A DNA stretch of 11,508 nucleotides from a virus. How positions within the stretch are numbered: the first letter of the stretch is position 1; each line of letters starts with the position of its first letter. Below are positions 2,098 to 11,508 of the stretch, in pieces. A model generated the notes under the pieces. That model was not told where the DNA came from. It saw only the letters and a list, made by a program, of their open reading frames with translations, and did not search any database. Both the position numbers and the translations under genes were made by a program. The stretch lies in the UHGV virus genome UHGV-0111509, one strand, 5' to 3'.

Positions 2098-2126
2098 AAA
2101 AATGCCCTCCAGTGGAGAGCATTTTT
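2098..2126 (-). promoter_or_regulatory. Hairpin (about 13-bp stem, one mismatch) immediately 5' of the int start codon whose 3' arm contains the int RBS; possible terminator/attenuator separating the upstream operon from int
   Basis: AAAAATGCCCTCC-agt-GGAGAGCATTTTT read directly at 2098-2126, with A/T runs on both sides. A candidate int promoter (-35 TTGACA at complement of 2144-2149, -10 TAAAAA at complement of 2122-2127, 16-nt spacer) overlaps it. Confidence 0.3.
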
Positions 2127-2186
2127 ACTGTATATATAACCAGTGTCAATGTATATTAATTGAGATTCATACATTGAGGTTAATTT

Positions 2187-2793: not shown

Positions 2794-3843
2794 CTATAGC
2801 CACCTAGAAATTATTGATGTTAACTTGGAAAAAATTTTAGCATAATCTTCACGTTCTGGAATAATAATATTTCCTTCATCCTTTAATTCTGTGAATGCAG
2901 AATACGCCTCTTGAGCAGCTCTTTCCAAATCAGAACTAAGTTGTGGCCTTGATGCTTTTAGAGTAAAACTATCATTATTCCCTGATAGCCTTGCTCCGTG
3001 TTCATCTTTACCACTTATAATTACTTTAGAGTTGGCCATTTGGGTTGCACTTGTTGTTTTTTGAATGACGGCCTCAGAATTTAGACCATCTTCATTTTTA
3101 TTTGTGTATACTAATTGAGCTTTACTACTATTAAGTTCTTCTTTTTCTTGTTCAATTTTTCTCCAGAAGCCATCAAGAGATATATTTTCACTATTTGTTG
3201 GCAATAACTCAATTGATAATCTATTCACAACAGAAAAGAGTTCAACAAAATTGCTCAATGATCTTGGGTCTGTTAAGGGGGTAACCCGTAATTTTGGGGC
3301 TCCTAGTTTACGATAAATATCTTTTTTATATAGTCGATCAATGTATGATTTTTTCTTTCTAATTCTTTTATTTTTTTTTACTTCGTAATCCACAAAAGAA
3401 TTATATCGCTTTGCAAGGCAATACTTGCTAGTATTTTCAAATTCTTCTAGGGTAGGGGCTCCAGAAACCTCTTTACAAAGCATTAATCTGTGCTCATTAA
3501 GCATAAGGATAAAAATAGAGCTGGGGTGACTTTCTAGCGTCCTGTGATCTCGAATTAATTGACCATCTTGAAATATTTGATCTCGTTTAAATATGGTCTT
3601 TTTAATAATACGCCCACACAATGCAATTGTTGGAACTATAGGACCAATAAAATCTGAATCTGTAGTATCTAACGTAATTATTTTTGTGTCAGTAAAGAAA
3701 TATTCTGTATCTTTAAATTTTCTAACGTATTTTTGTGCGAAAAATGAAGGAAAAACAATGCAGTCAAAGGCATCTAAGAGAACTTTGTCCTCTCCAAAAT
3801 TTAAGGTATAGTTTGCAAATTCAATAGTTTTCGTAAAGCTCAT
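2794..3843 (-). CDS. Hypothetical cytoplasmic protein (349 aa) with no motif I recognise; middle gene of the repressor-linked operon; candidate sensor/effector partner of the membrane protein
   Basis: Long uninterrupted ORF in an AT-rich region. Its ATG (3843-3841) lies 2 nt after the TAA stop of the repressor gene (3848-3846), indicating translational coupling. It has a lysine-rich basic patch (KKNKRIRKKKSYIDRLYKK). No Walker A or nuclease signature was seen. Confidence 0.7.
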   Translation of the reverse strand: MSFTKTIEFANYTLNFGEDKVLLDAFDCIVFPSFFAQKYVRKFKDTEYFFTDTKIITLDTTDSDFIGPIVPTIALCGRIIKKTIFKRDQIFQDGQLIRDHRTLESHPSSIFILMLNEHRLMLCKEVSGAPTLEEFENTSKYCLAKRYNSFVDYEVKKNKRIRKKKSYIDRLYKKDIYRKLGAPKLRVTPLTDPRSLSNFVELFSVVNRLSIELLPTNSENISLDGFWRKIEQEKEELNSSKAQLVYTNKNEDGLNSEAVIQKTTSATQMANSKVIISGKDEHGARLSGNNDSFTLKASRPQLSSDLERAAQEAYSAFTELKDEGNIIIPEREDYAKIFSKLTSIISRWL

Positions 3844-3845
3844 TG

Positions 3846-4787
3846 TTAAACCCTTTTTCTAATTATTCCTTTAACTTTATTATTAAATTCCAAATCTTCT
3901 TTGTCGCATTCAAAGCTATATTTTGTGTTTTCAACGCGGATGCGATTGTTTGGAAGTTTAAATATATCTCTAAAAGTAAATTCTCCGTTAATAGATACTA
4001 ACCATAGACCATCGCTAAGATACTCCTCTTTGCTAATGATGTATGAATCATTTGCGGAATTAACTATATAGGGATGTTTTAAATTTTGAGGTAAAATTTC
4101 GCTCGAAACGATTAATTCTCTTTGATCAGTAAGTTTGCCGTCACGTAGATCATAGCAGTCTAATGTAAGCAACCCACTTAGCTTTGTTTGATTGGAACGC
4201 CCCTTACCAAAAGATAACCACTCGAGAGACACTCCTGTTTCTAAACAGCATTGGATGATCCAGTCTGCAGGAAAAATGTCTCGCATGTATCGTGTAGCTA
4301 ACGTGCTTTTTGAGATACCAAGGTGATCGGCTAAGGCTTGGCGCGTTTTGTAACCGTAAGCCTCAACAATTCGCTCTATTGCTGCTTTACCCCCTCGAGT
4401 GAAATCCATGTGGTTTTCATTATCGAACTTTATAGTGGGGGTGTGAACTTCATTGCAAAATTCATCTCCAGACTGTTTTTCAGCATGCCATTCTGGCGAA
4501 GGAGATGGCATTCCTTCTTCGGCATCTAAACCAAATGCTAGCCATTCGATTGATGCACCAGTTTCCATTGAACATATAACAACCCAATCAGCAGGGAAGG
4601 TATCGCGTGCATATCTGTTAGCCATTGTACTTTGTGAAATACCAAGGTGGTTACAGAATGCTTGGCGTGATTTGAAACCATAGGCCATGAGTATTCTCTC
4701 AATGACTTTTTGCCCTCCTCGATTCTGCATGACCATGGCTTTCAGATGATCTTCAATATGGCGAAATGTGATTTTATTAGTTGACAT
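3846..4787 (-). CDS. CI-type phage immunity repressor candidate with a tandemly duplicated 186-CI-like HTH domain plus a C-terminal domain (313 aa)
   Basis: Two about 64-aa segments (residues about 23-86 and 130-193) are roughly 60% identical to each other: RGGQKVIERILMAYGFKSRQAFCNHLGISQSTMANRYARDTFPADWVVICSMETGASIEWLAFG versus RGGKAAIERIVEAYGYKTRQALADHLGISKSTLATRYMRDIFPADWIIQCCLETGVSLEWLSFG. Both resemble the phage-186-type CI repressor HTH domain (from memory). The gene is divergent from the apl/cox-like gene, which is the canonical repressor position. Confidence 0.8.
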   Translation of the reverse strand: MSTNKITFRHIEDHLKAMVMQNRGGQKVIERILMAYGFKSRQAFCNHLGISQSTMANRYARDTFPADWVVICSMETGASIEWLAFGLDAEEGMPSPSPEWHAEKQSGDEFCNEVHTPTIKFDNENHMDFTRGGKAAIERIVEAYGYKTRQALADHLGISKSTLATRYMRDIFPADWIIQCCLETGVSLEWLSFGKGRSNQTKLSGLLTLDCYDLRDGKLTDQRELIVSSEILPQNLKHPYIVNSANDSYIISKEEYLSDGLWLVSINGEFTFRDIFKLPNNRIRVENTKYSFECDKEDLEFNNKVKGIIRKRV

Positions 4788-4875: not shown

Positions 4876-5097
4876 ATGACCCCTAACATTTCAATAACTC
4901 TGAATACGCCGCACGTCACAATTGAGCGTTATAGCGAACTTACTGGTCTTTCTATCGACACAATCAACGATATGCTGGCTGATGGTCGCATCCCTCGTCA
5001 TCGCCTTCGGAAAGACAAGAAAAGAGAAAAGGTAATGATCAACCTTGCTGCTCTTACCGTTGATGCACTTACTGATTGCAATGTTGTATTCAACTAG
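4876..5097 (+). CDS. Apl/Cox-like excisionase and transcriptional regulator (small HTH protein, 73 aa)
   Basis: ATG at 4876 preceded by AGGAG (4861-4865). HTH-like segment [27 protein letters not shown]. First gene divergent from the repressor, which is the apl (186) / cox (P2) position. The upstream in-frame extension to 4768 is rejected. Confidence 0.7.
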
Positions 5098-5129
5098 TTC
5101 CATTTTGGGATACATCAGGAGTGTCGACT

Positions 5130-5639
5130 ATGTTTGATTACCAAGTTTCCAAACATCCACATTTTGATGAAGCCTGTCGTACATTCGCGCTGCGCCACAA
5201 CCTGGTGCAACTGGCAGAACGTGCTGGCATGAATGTGCAGATTCTGCGTAACAAGCTGAACCCAGCTCAACCTCATTTATTAACCGCACCAGAAATCTGG
5301 CTGCTTACCGATCTGACTGAAGATTCAACGCTGGTAGATGGTTTTCTGGCTCAGATTCACTGCCTGCCATGCGTACCGATTAATGAGGTGGCAAAAGAGA
5401 AACTGCCACATTACGTCATGAGTGCAACCGCAGAGATCGGGCGTGTTGCTGCAGGTGCGGTATCTGGCGATGTAAAAACCAGTGCAGGTCGTCGTGATGC
5501 TATCAGCAGCATTAACTCTGTAACACGACTGATGGCGCTGGCGGCTGTTTCATTGCAGGCCCGTTTACAGGCTAATCCTGCGATGGCGAGTGCAGTTGAT
5601 ACCGTGACTGGCCTCGGTGCTTCATTCGGTTTGCTGTGA
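5130..5639 (+). CDS. cII: Phage 186 CII-like lysogeny-establishment transcriptional activator (169 aa)
   Basis: ATG at 5130 with AGGAG RBS at 5117-5121. The 169-aa length and the position immediately after apl match phage 186 CII as I remember it. HTH-like region [19 protein letters not shown]. Needs BLASTP confirmation. Confidence 0.75.
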
Positions 5640-6453: not shown

Positions 6454-6680
6454 TGGCTGATGCAATGGATCTCGTACAGCAGCGCGTTGAAGAAGAACGC
6501 CAGCGCCACATCCGTGCTGCCCGTGCCAAAACGCCGGGCGTGTCCCGCGTGCTTTGCATTGAGTGTGAAGCGCCAATTCCGCCAGCACGCCGCCGCGCCA
6601 TTCCGGGAGTGCAGCTTTGCATTACCTGTCAGGAAATCGCAGAGCTGAAAGGTAAACATTACAACGGAGGTGTTGTATGA
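6453..6680 (+). CDS. TraR/DksA-family C4 zinc-finger protein (75 aa)
   Basis: Two Cys pairs, CIECEAPIP...CITCQ, with spacing typical of the TraR/DksA zinc finger. P2-family phages carry such a gene upstream of A (established knowledge). Confidence 0.75.
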   Translation: MADAMDLVQQRVEEERQRHIRAARAKTPGVSRVLCIECEAPIPPARRRAIPGVQLCITCQEIAELKGKHYNGGVV

Positions 6681-7534
6681 GCACCATCCTGAAATGGGCG
6701 GGAAATAAAACCGCCATTATGCCAGAACTGAAAAAACACCTTCCTGCTGGCCCGCGACTGGTTGAACCTTTCGCGGGTTCCTGTGCAGTGATGATGGAGA
6801 CGGATTACCCCAGCTATCTGGTTGCGGATATTAATCCTGATTTAATCAACCTCTATAAAAAGGTTGCCGCTGATTGTGAATTGTTTATATCTCGCGCCAG
6901 GGTTTTATTTGAGGAAGCAAACAGGGATGTGGCTTATTACAACATAAGGCAGGAGTTTAACTACTCAACTGAAATTACTGATTTCATGAAAGCGGTATAT
7001 TTCCTGTATCTCAATCGTCATGGTTACCGTGGGTTATGTCGCTATAACAAGAGCGGGCATTTCAACATTCCCTACGGTAATTATAAAAATCCGTATTTCC
7101 CTGAAAAAGAAATTCGTGCATTTGCAGTAAAAGCCCTGCGGGCAACGTTTATCTGCGCCAGCTTTGATGAAACGCTGGCGATGTTGAAGGCGGGGGATGT
7201 GGTGTATTGCGATCCGCCGTATGACGGCACGTTTTCCGGTTATCACACTGACGGCTTCACTGAAGATGACCAGTATCACCTGGCATCCGTTCTTGAACAT
7301 CGATCATCTGAAGGTCATCCGGTCATTGTTTCTAACAGTGACACATCCCTGATTCGTTCGCTGTATCGCAATTTCACTCACCACTACATCAAGGCAAAAC
7401 GCAGCATCGGTGTGTCGGCTGGCGAGAGTAAATCTGCAACAGAAATCATTGCTGTTTCCGGGGCGCGCTGCTGGGTGGGATTTGATCCTTCGCGTGGCGT
7501 GGATAGTTCTGCTGTGTACGAGGTGCGTGTATGA
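6677..7534 (+). CDS. dam: Dam-family (D12 class) N6-adenine DNA methyltransferase, orphan phage methyltransferase (285 aa)
   Basis: N-terminal LKWAGNK and [11 protein letters not shown] (AdoMet-binding motif I), catalytic DPPY (VYCDPPYDG), and the conserved [16 protein letters not shown] block closely parallel E. coli Dam. The start overlaps the TraR-like stop (ATGA), and its stop overlaps the A start. Confidence 0.9.
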
Positions 7535-9945
7535 CTCATGACGATATGAGCAACTCTAGCGGCTTTAACGAGGTCGCTGTAGCATTTTCATGGAACGGCC
7601 CGAAAAAGGCCATTAACCCTTATCTGGAACCGGCGGAAGTTGCGCCGGAGTCTGCACTTTCAAACATGATCACTCTGTACGCTGCCGATAACGAGCAGGA
7701 ACAGCAGCGCCGCGAGGCACTGAGTGATCAGGTCTGGGAACGTTATTTCTTTAATGAATCCCGTGATCCTGTCCAGCGCGAAATGGAGCAGGATAAGCTC
7801 ATTAGCCGGGCAAAACTGGCGCATGAACAGCAGCGTTTTAACCCGGACATGGTCATTCTGGCAGATGTCAGCGCCCAGCCTTCTCATATCAGCAAGCCGC
7901 TGATGCAACGTATCGAATACTTCAGCAGCCTGGGCAGGCCAAAGGCTTATTCCCGCTATTTGCGTGAGACGATTAAGCCATGTCTGGAGCGACTGGATTG
8001 TGTACGTGACAGTCAGCTATCTGTTTCTTTCCGTTTTATGGCAAGCCATCAAGGGCTGGAGGGTCTGCTGATCCTGCCTGAAATGAGCCAGGATCAGGTG
8101 AAACGCCTGTCCACCCTGGTAGCAGCGCATATGAGCATGTGTCTTGAGGCCGCTTGTGGTGATTTGTACGCCACCGATGACGTTAAGCCAGAAGAAATCC
8201 GCAAGACATGGCAAAAGGTGGCTGCGGAAACCCTGCGTCTGGATGTTATCCCGCCTGCGTTTGAGAAACTTCGTCGGAAAAGAAACCGCCGCAAACCCGT
8301 GCCCTATGAACTCATACCGGGTTCGCTGGCGCGTATGTTGTGCGCCGACTGGTGGTATCGAAAATTATGGAGGATGCGTTGCGAATGGCGGGAAGAGCAG
8401 TTGCGTGCTGTCTGTCTGGTCAGCAAAAAAGCATCTCCCTATGTCAGCTATGAAGCCGTGACGCATAAACGTGAGCAGCGCCGCAAGTCGCTGGAGTTTT
8501 TCCGTTCTCATGAACTGGTGAACGAAGACGGAGACACGCTGGATATGGAAGATGTGGTAAACGCCAGCAGCAGCAACCCGGCACATCGCCGCAATGAGAT
8601 GATGGCCTGCGTTAAAGGTCTGGAGCTTATCGCGGAAATGCGTGGTGACTGCGCCGTTTTCTACACTATCACCTGTCCGTCACGTTTCCATTCCACGCTC
8701 AACAACGGCAGACCCAACCCGACCTGGACAAACGCGACGGTAAGACAAAGCAGCGATTATCTGGTCGGCATGTTTGCTGCATTTCGTAAGGCAATGCATA
8801 AAACCGGGCTGCGCTGGTATGGCGTGCGGGTGGCTGAGCCGCACCATGACGGTACTGTGCACTGGCATCTTATGTGCTTCATGCGTAAAAAAGACCGCCG
8901 CGCCATCACTGCATTACTGCGTAAGTTTGCCATCCGTGAAGACCGCGAGGAGCTGGGTAATAACACTGGTCCGCGCTTTAAGTCTGAGCTGATTAACCCG
9001 CGCAAAGGAACGCCGACAAGCTACATCGCGAAATATATCAGTAAAAATATTGACGGACGTGGTCTGGCTGGCGAGATCAGCAAGGAAACGGGTAAATCCC
9101 TGCGTGATAACGCCGAATACGTTAATGCCTGGGCGTCTCTGCATCGTGTTCAGCAGTTCCGCTTCTTTGGTATTCCGGGACGTCAGGCTTACCGTGAACT
9201 TCGCTTGCTGGCTGGTCAGGCGGCAAGGCAACAGGGTGACAAAAAAGCAGGTGCGCCGGTACTGGATGACCCGCGTCTTGATGCCATCCTGGCTGCTGCT
9301 GATGCTGGTTGTTTTGCCACCTACATCATGAAGCAGGGCGGCGTACTGGTTCCCCGCAAATATCACCTTATCAGAACCGCTTATGAAATTAACGAAGAGC
9401 CGACCGCCTATGGCGATCACGGTATTCGTATTTATGGCATCTGGTCACCCATTTCAGAGGGCAAGATCTGCACTCATGCAGTGAAGTGGAAAATGGTTCG
9501 TAAGGCCGTTGACGTTCAGGAGGCGGTAGCCGACCAGGGCGCTTGCGCCCCTTGGACTCGTGGCAATAACTGTCCCCTTGCTGAAAATTTGAACCAACAT
9601 GAGAAAGATGAATCAGCAGATGGGGATACCAGAACGGACATTACCTGCATGGATGACAAGGAATTGCACGATTACCTGCACAGTATGAGCAAAAAAGAGC
9701 GCCGGGAACTGGCAGCAAGATTGCGCCTGGTTAAACCGAAACGGCGTAAAGACTACAAACAGCGAATTACAGAGTATCAGCGTCAGCAGCTCGTCTATGA
9801 ACTGAAGTCCAGAGGATTTGATGGCAGCGAGAAAGAGGTCGATTTGCTCCTTTGCGGTGGCAGTATTCCGTCAGGAGCAGGCCTGCGTATCTTCTATCGG
9901 AACCAGCGTTTGCAGGAAGATGATAAGTGGCGGAACCTGTATTAA
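7531..9945 (+). CDS. A: P2/186 gpA-type rolling-circle replication initiation endonuclease (804 aa)
   Basis: HUH motif ([10 protein letters not shown]) and paired active-site tyrosines ([10 protein letters not shown]) are characteristic of the gpA/phiX174 gpA family. Its size and its position after the early genes match P2 gene A. Confidence 0.9.
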
Positions 9946-10037
9946 TCACGCGGGTTAACAATTCGTGCTCTTAATAATACCAGGCATATCAGGCTGATGA
10001 ACGTAAAAAAACGTTTTACATCAGTACGATTATTATA

Positions 10038-10057
10038 TACTGTAAATATAAACAGTG
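10038..10057. promoter_or_regulatory. LexA operator (SOS box) taCTGTaaatataaACAGtg in a promoter-like AT-rich region upstream of the 62-aa ORF
   Basis: Read directly: CTGT (10040-10043), 8 A/T-only nucleotides, ACAG (10052-10055). This matches the LexA consensus CTGT-N8-ACAG with an AT-rich spacer. Possible -35 TTTACA (10015-10020) and -10 TATACT (10036-10041) overlap it. Confidence 0.7.
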
Positions 10058-10098
10058 GTTATATGTACAGTATTGCGTATGGTGTTATAGGAGGAAAG

Positions 10099-10287
10099 AT
10101 GCAGGACTATTTTTTGGAGTCTTTGAAGCTCCAGCGCATTGATTTTTTTCTTAAGCTTGTAGCGGCTAGTGAGTGTAGTGATGAAGAGAAGGGGCTAGCT
10201 CTGCAGTGGGTTTCTGAATTGACTGATGAGTTGATGGCGAAAATTCGAAGCCATGAATACAGTAGGTCGATGGATGTAATCAGTTGA
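10099..10287 (+). CDS. Hypothetical 62-aa protein under putative LexA control; candidate Tum-like SOS-inducible antirepressor
   Basis: ATG at 10099 with TAGGAGGA RBS at 10088-10095. The LexA box is about 45 bp upstream and a terminator follows. The longer ORF-track start (9997) would run through the promoter and LexA box and is rejected. The functional call is by analogy to 186 tum. Confidence 0.5.
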   Translation: MQDYFLESLKLQRIDFFLKLVAASECSDEEKGLALQWVSELTDELMAKIRSHEYSRSMDVIS

Positions 10288-10320
10288 GCTTGTTTCGTTA
10301 GGACTTGATAAGGGAACCGA

Positions 10321-10341
10321 AAAGGGGCATTAAGCCCCTTT
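10321..10341. terminator. Bidirectional intrinsic terminator between convergent genes (stem AAAGGGGC / GCCCCTTT, loop ATTAA)
   Basis: GC-rich 8-bp stem read directly. Followed by TTTCTC on the plus strand and by TTTTCGG on the minus strand. It lies between the plus-strand gene ending at 10287 and the minus-strand gene ending at 10355. Confidence 0.55.
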
Positions 10342-10354
10342 CTCATAAGTTGAT

Positions 10355-10654
10355 TTAGTTGTTACCCAAAGAGCCGGCCATGGCTGCATATTTAATTTCT
10401 TCGCTGGGTATTTCAGGATGTAGTTGAATTTGCCTGATGATATAGCCAGGAACTTCTTCACTCCACAGTTTCGCCGCGTCCTTACAGACCTTATACGCGA
10501 AGTCTCTATTCTCAAAGGCATAGGATTTTCCGTATGCATATTGCTGACAGGCATGAACATAAGCTCCGAAGTCGCCGTCTTTATCTGGCAAAGCACATCC
10601 AGCTAAGGCTATGATGATTGCTACTAACGTAAAGGAGAAAGTTATACGTTTCAT
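10355..10654 (-). CDS. Small lipoprotein (99 aa): signal peptide with lipobox LAGC
   Basis: N-terminus MKRITFSFTLVAIIIALAGCALP has a basic n-region, a hydrophobic core and a L-A-G-C lipobox. The mature part is rich in Tyr and Cys. Located in the AT-rich cargo region downstream of gene A. Confidence 0.75.
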   Translation of the reverse strand: MKRITFSFTLVAIIIALAGCALPDKDGDFGAYVHACQQYAYGKSYAFENRDFAYKVCKDAAKLWSEEVPGYIIRQIQLHPEIPSEEIKYAAMAGSLGNN

Positions 10655-10709
10655 GGTCTCTTTCTAAGCGTTTAGCATTATTTAACTAAGGGGTATCTGC
10701 CGTGATTTG

Positions 10710-10738
10710 GTAGTCCCTGATATATATTCTCAGGGACT
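10710..10738. promoter_or_regulatory. Perfect 10-bp inverted repeat TAGTCCCTGA-(9 nt AT-rich)-TCAGGGACTA between two same-strand cargo genes; candidate operator or RNA hairpin
   Basis: Read directly: 10710-10719 and 10729-10738 are exact reverse complements with spacer TATATATTC. No T-run follows on the minus strand, so it is not a classical terminator. Confidence 0.4.
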
Positions 10739-10762
10739 ATGCTGAAGTAGCTTTAATTTTGA

Positions 10763-11508
10763 TTATTTAGAAAGGTACTTATCTCTAAGTTGATTCAGTC
10801 TGTCAGCATCGCGTTCTGAAAACTCGGCGTCACCATAGATCGATTTCCCATCTGCGTCTTCAAGGCCAATGACTGTGACGGTAAATATAGCATCAGCCGG
10901 AACTTTAAGTTTTCCCCAATCAGAGTATCTATTAGGGGCTAATTTCCAGTTGGCTTTCTCACCTGGTTCCAGACCTCCAGAAATTTTATAGTTGAAGACG
11001 TCAGAGAACCAAGGGACGCTTCTTCCTGGGCTGGCAATAACTCCTTTGAAGAATACTCTGGCAACCGCTTTGTCTGTTCCGTTTTCAACGCTAATATCCA
11101 GAATTGGCTGATCATTGCCGTAATCCTCTTTCTGGAAATAAAAACGGGAACGTTCGACCTTGAAGGCTTTCATTTTTTCCGCAGCCTGTGTTGCAGAGGT
11201 TTGTTTGGCTTCCAGTTCTTTTATTTCTTGCAGAGCCTGTTCTTTCTCTCTCTTCTCACGCTCAAGGCGAATAGTTTGTGCGTAATTTATAACCTCATCA
11301 CCAGTTTTACCTTCCAACGCTGACTTAATTTTTGTTTCGTAGACGTCCCCAGAAGACGTTCCAGCCTGCATTAGCTCTCTCATGTTGATTTGGCTAAAGG
11401 CAACGACTTTAACTGCATCATCAAACTGAGCTTTTTTATCTGCAGGTAAGGACTCTCGGTGATGCTGCCAACTTACTGATTTAGTGTATGATGGTGTTTT
11501 TGAGGTGC
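10763..11508 (-). CDS. Hypothetical protein, 5' end outside the window (at least 248 codons); contains a predicted coiled-coil segment
   Basis: The ORF track starts it at the Met at 11383, but the same frame stays open without a stop to the window edge (checked codon by codon, 11384-11506), so the gene probably starts beyond 11508. Charged heptad-like segment EREKREKEQALQEIKELEAKQ. AT-rich. Confidence 0.6.
   Translation of the reverse strand, partial: TSKTPSYTKSVSWQHHRESLPADKKAQFDDAVKVVAFSQINMRELMQAGTSSGDVYETKIKSALEGKTGDEVINYAQTIRLEREKREKEQALQEIKELEAKQTSATQAAEKMKAFKVERSRFYFQKEDYGNDQPILDISVENGTDKAVARVFFKGVIASPGRSVPWFSDVFNYKISGGLEPGEKANWKLAPNRYSDWGKLKVPADAIFTVTVIGLEDADGKSIYGDAEFSERDADRLNQLRDKYLSK

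Follow-up and report, generated by a model that had tools for sequence, protein, structure and literature searches.

The window, by which we mean the whole analyzed stretch of 11,508 nucleotides (UHGV virus genome UHGV-0111509), represents the left end of an E. coli prophage that resembles Fels-2 (Felsduovirus; 186/P2 family). The prophage is integrated adjoining the E. coli gene rcdA (20–586). Its minus-strand genes are int (1065–2096), two cargo genes for proteins of 201 aa (2187–2792) and 349 aa (2794–3843), to which no function was assigned, and the gene for a 313-aa CI repressor (3846–4787), in which Pfam recognizes two Phage_CI_repr helix-turn-helix (HTH) domains and a Phage_CI_C domain. 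On the plus strand follow cII (5076–5639), then fil, a DUF5347 gene, a DUF2732 gene and a gene of the DksA zinc-finger type, then dam (6677–7534), and the replication gene A (gpA, PF05840; 7531–9945). Rfam and tRNA scans over the window found nothing. E. coli EC20-72C-1 matches the left 2.3 kb at 100% identity, and the region discussed below is 99.8% identical to E. coli ECONIH4; we therefore regard the window as a mosaic of a left arm matching the former and a right arm matching the latter genome.

Directly downstream of gene A, and on the same strand, lies a compact unit that extends from a promoter to a hairpin (10015–10341) and contains a gene of 62 codons plus stop (10099–10287), which we call tum (tumA-type). 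This position, in an early region of the P2/186 type, corresponds to the gene order in 186, PsP3, Fels-2 and DuoHS, the latter being a prophage of E. coli HS. A preliminary description of this DNA had placed a promoter, a LexA box, a 62-aa ORF and a terminator here, and all of these elements were found in the sequence.

Promoter and LexA operator of tum

The tum promoter, the counterpart of p95 in phage 186, was recognized from its sequence and conservation and has the layout TTTACA-17 nt-TACTGT on the plus strand, with the −35 hexamer at 10015–10020 and a −10 hexamer at 10038–10043 that was assigned by analogy with p95 and doubles as the left arm of a LexA box. An alternative −10 hexamer, TATACT at 10036–10041 (plus strand), would leave a spacer of 15 nt. 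Consensus promoter and terminator scans of positions 9700–10800 returned zero sites. The consensus scan overlooked the promoter since TACTGT and TATAAT agree at just three of six positions, and we retained it on the grounds of the p95 precedent and its conservation. The 186 record annotates p95 as TTCACA-18-TACTGT, where the left arm of the LexA box likewise provides the −10 hexamer. The −35 hexamer, the 17-nt spacing and the −10 hexamer are invariant in six relatives, and the sequence of the spacer diverges. Across the same alignment the invariant columns cluster at the −35 hexamer, the operator, the Shine-Dalgarno sequence and the ATG, and spacer and leader vary. The Shine-Dalgarno sequence itself (AGGAGG, 10089–10094, plus strand) is located 4 nt before the ATG and is invariant.

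The first LexA box (TACTGTAAATATAAACAGTG, 10038–10057, strandless) has the perfect core CTGT-AAATATAA-ACAG (10040–10055), with a spacer made up entirely of A and T, and overlaps the promoter hexamer, as the preliminary description had reported. The CTGT-N8-ACAG core pattern occurs a single time in the window; by itself it is weak evidence, with 0.13 matches expected and at least one match in 25 of 200 shuffles. The full 20-mer was therefore judged with a matrix derived from 18 E. coli sites that PMC3009722 lists for LexA and whose heterology indices (HI) range from 0.27 to 9.29. This scoring, which had been proposed as a check of the site, gave an HI of 4.34 and 22.5 bits, a value within the range of the real sites and reached by none of 200 shuffles of the window (best 20-mer HI per shuffle: minimum 5.91, median 12.6). 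Box 1 was found in all close relatives.

A second box, missing from the preliminary description, overlaps the first (CAGTGGTTATATGTACAGTA, 10053–10072, strandless; HI 8.56, 16 bits), so that the 16-bp cores of the two boxes (10040–10055 and 10055–10070) have one base pair in common. Taken alone it is a weak site, as approximately 5% of the shuffles reach its HI, and its score resembles those of the weak genuine sites of polB, dinG, dinB and ftsK. Box 2 is conserved in SopEPhi, Yersinia phage MLG42 and Klebsiella phage phi4.1, where the double box is kept at a spacing of 15 nt despite diverged flanks. Four diverged phage lineages retain this spacing. One stronger LexA box each was found in 186, PsP3, Escherichia phage ESSI2_ev015 and Cronobacter phage ESSI-2. 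Judged by sequence, boxes 1 and 2 form a double operator of the colicin type and are a candidate for occupancy by two LexA dimers. At this level the gene has what is expected of an SOS-controlled member of the Tum family, namely a conserved LexA operator that overlaps the −10 region.

The 62-aa protein and the region downstream of tum

The substitution pattern of the 62-aa ORF relative to six relatives (pN/pS 0.06–0.18) indicates that it is coding and under purifying selection. A longer reading of 96 aa, starting from an ATG at 9997, was rejected: it begins upstream of the promoter, and stop codons break the extension in diverged relatives. Since the upstream extension is not conserved, the start at 10099 is taken as the real one. 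Some database records give a product of 96 aa (or 84–101 aa) with a wrong start, ahead of the promoter, or label it with the spurious name 'levan regulatory protein'. An antisense ORF of 79 aa (10107–10346, minus strand) is located almost wholly inside tum, and the substitutions fit selection on the tum frame.

The encoded protein is identical at 61 of 62 positions (98%) to ECHS_RS04495 of DuoHS, which is the locus deleted as 'tum' in that prophage (supplement of PMC12055606). Following mitomycin C treatment, neither the DuoHS tum deletion strain nor a lexA(Ind-) strain showed lysis, viral foci or lytic replication, and the need for cleavable LexA in damage induction of the DuoHS orthologue is thereby established genetically (PMC12055606). 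Identity amounts to 95% with STM2728 of Fels-2 and to 90% with orf10 of SopEPhi, whose Tum is reported to be SOS-induced according to the account of Diard 2017 cited in PMC9827884.

The relationship to the Tum protein of 186 was recovered by profile methods, on which the homology to 186 Tum and to TumA of PsP3 rests; pairwise BLASTP of the ORF against these two proteins gave no match. The 62-aa ORF matches phrog_698, a family of unknown function, with an E-value of 1e-37 and phrog_1993 at 0.002, and residues 1–70 of 186 Tum match phrog_698 at 5.9e-6. Both the window protein and 186 Tum match phrog_8554 (1.6e-8 and 3.4e-12). An hhalign comparison of a diverse alignment of the window family with the family comprising the N-terminal part of 186 Tum (Tum-N) and PsP3 TumA yielded a probability of 96.4% and an E-value of 1.1e-9, with a colinear match from Met1 to residue 51 on both sides; a first comparison, based on a shallow alignment of close relatives, had given a probability of 20.8%, and the result became decisive after diverse representatives were added. 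The core common to the families reads M-D-x3-E-x3-(L/I)(Q/E)R(I/V)-x2-(hydrophobic)x(R/K)L(V/T)A-x3-C-x3-(D/E)(K/R)x(L/I)A-x2-(W/L)-x2-E(L/I). Among the conserved positions of the window protein are Cys26, Trp37 and Glu40-Leu41. On the strength of these sequence relationships, the 62-aa protein is a member of the Tum antirepressor family. The suggestion that so small a protein may belong to a different antirepressor family is contradicted by the hhalign match over residues 1–51, with which the PHROG cross-matches agree.

Searches of Pfam, NCBIfam and PADLOC with the 62-aa ORF gave no match. An AlphaFold2 model of the protein (pLDDT 86.8) is a helical hairpin with helices spanning residues 2–23 and 28–61. 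As no PDB sequence was found by profile search and a Foldseek comparison of the model with the PDB yielded generic helical hairpins only (best E-value 1.4), the protein is without structural precedent in the PDB.

The small size of the window protein is explained by the lack of the C-terminal, DinI-like half that 186 Tum has. No match to the DinI domain was obtained with it, its alignment with 186 Tum is limited to the half that is not DinI-like, and PF06183, the DinI family, is absent from every window ORF tested. In Fels-2 and PSP3 tum is split by a stop codon, such that the upstream gene codes for the antirepressor and the downstream gene for a DinI homologue (PMC3121763). In the window, the resemblance to Fels-2 and DuoHS extends no further than the tum stop codon, beyond which the genes are convergent: the place of tumB is taken by the hairpin and two cargo genes on the minus strand. 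Compared with DuoHS, tum has one nucleotide difference in its first 126 nt and 14 differences, mostly synonymous, in its last 63 nt. This uneven distribution points to a recombination junction inside tum at about codon 44, just past the conserved core (window approximately 10225–10287). The form lacking the DinI gene was found in approximately 22 of 1105 matching E. coli records, and Escherichia phage ESSI2_ev015 and Cronobacter phage ESSI-2 are also devoid of a DinI gene after their tum homologue.

The GC-rich hairpin of 8 bp at 10321–10341 (strandless) is a candidate intrinsic terminator. Its z-score is −1.96 on the plus strand and −2.85 on the minus strand, and the T tail on the plus strand is weak (TTTCTCAT). 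The same arrangement of hairpin and convergent gene exists in E. coli ECONIH4, and the hairpin probably is a bidirectional terminator that serves both tum and the convergent gene ending at 10355.

The two convergent genes that stand in the position of tumB (DinI) and orf97 encode proteins of 99 aa (phrog_7666; 10355–10654) and 206 aa (phrog_7468; 10763–11383). ECONIH4 annotates the phrog_7468 gene as a DUF6694 lipoprotein, and there it is interrupted by IS1. In EC20-72C-1, DUF262 and HEPN genes occupy the position between tum and the portal gene, which corresponds to the variable cargo or defence hotspot of P2-like phages.

CI, integrase and the induction of the prophage

The window CI (3846–4787) aligns with CI of 186 and of PsP3. 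Pfam matches it to PF07022 twice and to PF16452; all further matches are weak and to families of the HTH type, none being to a peptidase family. By these sequence features CI is a repressor of the 186 type rather than one that cleaves itself in the manner of LexA or lambda CI, and we presume it to be the target of Tum. The preliminary description had proposed an antirepressor like Tum, repressed by LexA, encoded to the right of gene A and acting on a non-cleavable CI, and this proposal is supported by the 61 residues shared with DuoHS tum and by the profile match to Tum-N. The dual-HTH architecture of CI, which had been called unusual, also exists elsewhere: an additional N-terminal HTH domain of the same kind is present in PsP3 CI, and CI (97%) together with Tum (96.8%) recurs in 13 phage records, among them Klebsiella phage 4LV2017.

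We therefore read window positions 10015–10341 as an SOS operon of one gene, tum, whose product, once released from LexA control, would inactivate the 186-type CI and induce the prophage, and we assign this reading a probability of roughly 90%. In the lysogen, LexA would occupy the two overlapping operators across the −10 region and the start of the promoter, keeping tum off. Upon DNA damage, activated RecA would trigger self-cleavage of LexA, and the 62-aa Tum would be made. Tum from 186 is described as binding and sequestering CI in the work of Shearwin 1998 as cited in PMC3121763 and PMC7708051. The window protein may likewise bind or sequester its 186-type CI reversibly, and cleavage of CI is not expected to take place on induction. 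With CI removed from the lytic promoter, the early operon (an apl-like gene, cII, fil and the genes up to A) would be switched on.

The step from Tum to the resident CI is an extrapolation, since the experiments were carried out on other prophages and since DuoHS and ECONIH4, which have a near-identical Tum, encode CI proteins that share only about 50% identity with the window CI over the 190 aa in common. A genuine, LexA-controlled tum might thus be mismatched to the resident dual-HTH CI and either be inert or act in trans on other 186-type prophages. The mosaic structure adds to this concern, as the window joins arms seen separately in two E. coli genomes and the pairing of CI and Tum could be recent; cross-talk of antirepressors with non-cognate repressors has moreover been documented in Salmonella (PMC3121763). 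We nevertheless consider a mismatch improbable. The recurrence of the CI-Tum pair in the 13 phage records, and of the same pair in EC20-72C-1, argues that Tum acts on the window CI; the occurrence of near-identical Tum proteins with several CI immunity types suggests that Tum recognizes a conserved surface of CI; and the strong purifying selection on tum also speaks against an inert gene. That the 62-aa protein is instead an SOS-induced accessory factor (a DinI-like modulator of RecA and the SOS response, a toxin or an exclusion factor) is very unlikely, even though it lacks a Pfam or NCBIfam family and a curated functional name and is listed as 'hypothetical protein' in databases, and even though the 186 SOS operon also encodes products other than the antirepressor. 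Deletion of the 98% identical DuoHS gene alone abolishes induction, the homology is to the N-terminal part of 186 Tum, the 186 record credits only the full-length product with inhibiting the DNA binding of CI and annotates the N-terminally truncated products as modulators of SOS induction, and the protein has no similarity to DinI.

The strongest LexA box of the window (TACTGTATATATAACCAGTG, 2126–2145, minus strand; HI 2.55) is located outside the tum unit, 30 nt upstream of the ATG of int (2096). The box takes up the spacer of a good promoter, TTGACA-N16/17-TAAAAA(T), within a minus-strand module at 2097–2149, and the promoter is followed by a hairpin (GCTCTCC-ACT-GGAGGGC) and T6, the hairpin covering the Shine-Dalgarno site of int. 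This module is conserved in DuoHS, ECONIH4, EC20-72C-1 and Klebsiella phage 4LV2017, where the sequences upstream of it differ, and is absent from Fels-2, 186 and PsP3, in which int directly follows cI. The arrangement suggests that expression of the integrase may also be under SOS control.

The two cargo genes between CI and int (2187–2792 and 2794–3843) had no match in Pfam or PADLOC. Both genes also occur in E. coli EC20-72C-1; the record of Klebsiella phage 4LV2017 annotates the one for 349 aa and leaves the place of the other without annotation. These genes could represent a defence or moron module.

A more far-reaching and still tentative idea concerns the sensitivity of the switch. If two LexA dimers bind cooperatively to the colicin-like double operator of this Felsduovirus-type tum promoter, which shares 22 identical nucleotides with operators of Col plasmids, the induction threshold may be higher, or be passed later, than at the single-box p95 promoters of 186 and PsP3. 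Together with the int box (2126–2145), this would give the prophage two connections to the SOS response that differ in sensitivity, with the DinI-type modulator lost in the window variant. In the literature searched, we found no published description of a double-operator threshold, of such two-point SOS wiring or of the loss of DinI.

Comparison with known systems

A LexA-repressed tum gene in a prophage of the Fels-2/186 type is already known and ordinary, and the main value of the present analysis is in annotation. The tum gene is present in 1101 of 5426 complete E. coli genomes, and its homologues form part of 484 protein clusters (E ≤ 0.001), in which they are almost always named 'hypothetical protein'. 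Once the gene is recognized as Tum, the P2-like prophages that carry it are predicted to be inducible by the SOS response, in contrast to P2 itself. To the 186 induction model, the double operator, the form without DinI and the int-proximal LexA box add small refinements that can be tested, and not new biology.

The 'split' Tum systems of Felsduovirus (DuoHS ECHS_RS04495, Fels-2 STM2728 and SopEPhi orf10, with the protein identities of 98%, 95% and 90% given above) are the closest to the window and share the position after gene A, the promoter, the double LexA operator and the Shine-Dalgarno sequence. They differ in that a DinI-like tumB follows 10–12 nt downstream, where the window has the terminator and convergent cargo. 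In addition, the window CI is of another immunity type than that of its Felsduovirus relatives and has the extra HTH domain.

Tum of 186 (146 aa, transcribed from p95) is homologous over its approximately 50 N-terminal residues, is likewise encoded after A and has a 186-type CI as its target. In contrast to the window protein, it is fused to a DinI-like C-terminal half, and internal starts give rise to DinI-like products. Its promoter has one very strong LexA box (HI 1.37 with the matrix of 18 sites) instead of two overlapping ones, and orf97 is the next gene in the same operon. TumA of the Salmonella phage PsP3 (60 aa) is, like the window protein, a short stand-alone antirepressor homologous to Tum-N, but it belongs to phrog_1993 rather than phrog_698, has a single LexA box, is followed by tumB (DinI), and shows no similarity detectable by BLASTP.

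GfoA and GfhA of the Gifsy phages and AntC of N15 are small LexA-repressed antirepressors that are encoded outside the immunity region and inactivate a non-cleavable repressor (PMC3121763). They follow the same logic as the window gene but belong to lambdoid phages or N15 and act on different repressor families.

The operator, finally, resembles those of colicin and cloacin operons, which also contain two LexA boxes, offset by 15 nt from start to start. Together with its 3' flank (CAGTGGTTATATGTACAGTATT), box 2 is identical to the promoter-proximal box of a cloacin-type bacteriocin gene on pIGMS32, and the 42-nt operator (10033–10074) matches more than 1000 small Col-type plasmids at approximately 90% identity, including the identical 22-nt stretch. 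In colicin operators, two LexA dimers at overlapping boxes bring about tight repression (PMC2994835). The resemblance may reflect either shared ancestry or convergence, and the functional settings are distinct: the operator in the window controls a prophage antirepressor, whereas its colicin-type counterpart controls a lethal bacteriocin or lysis operon.
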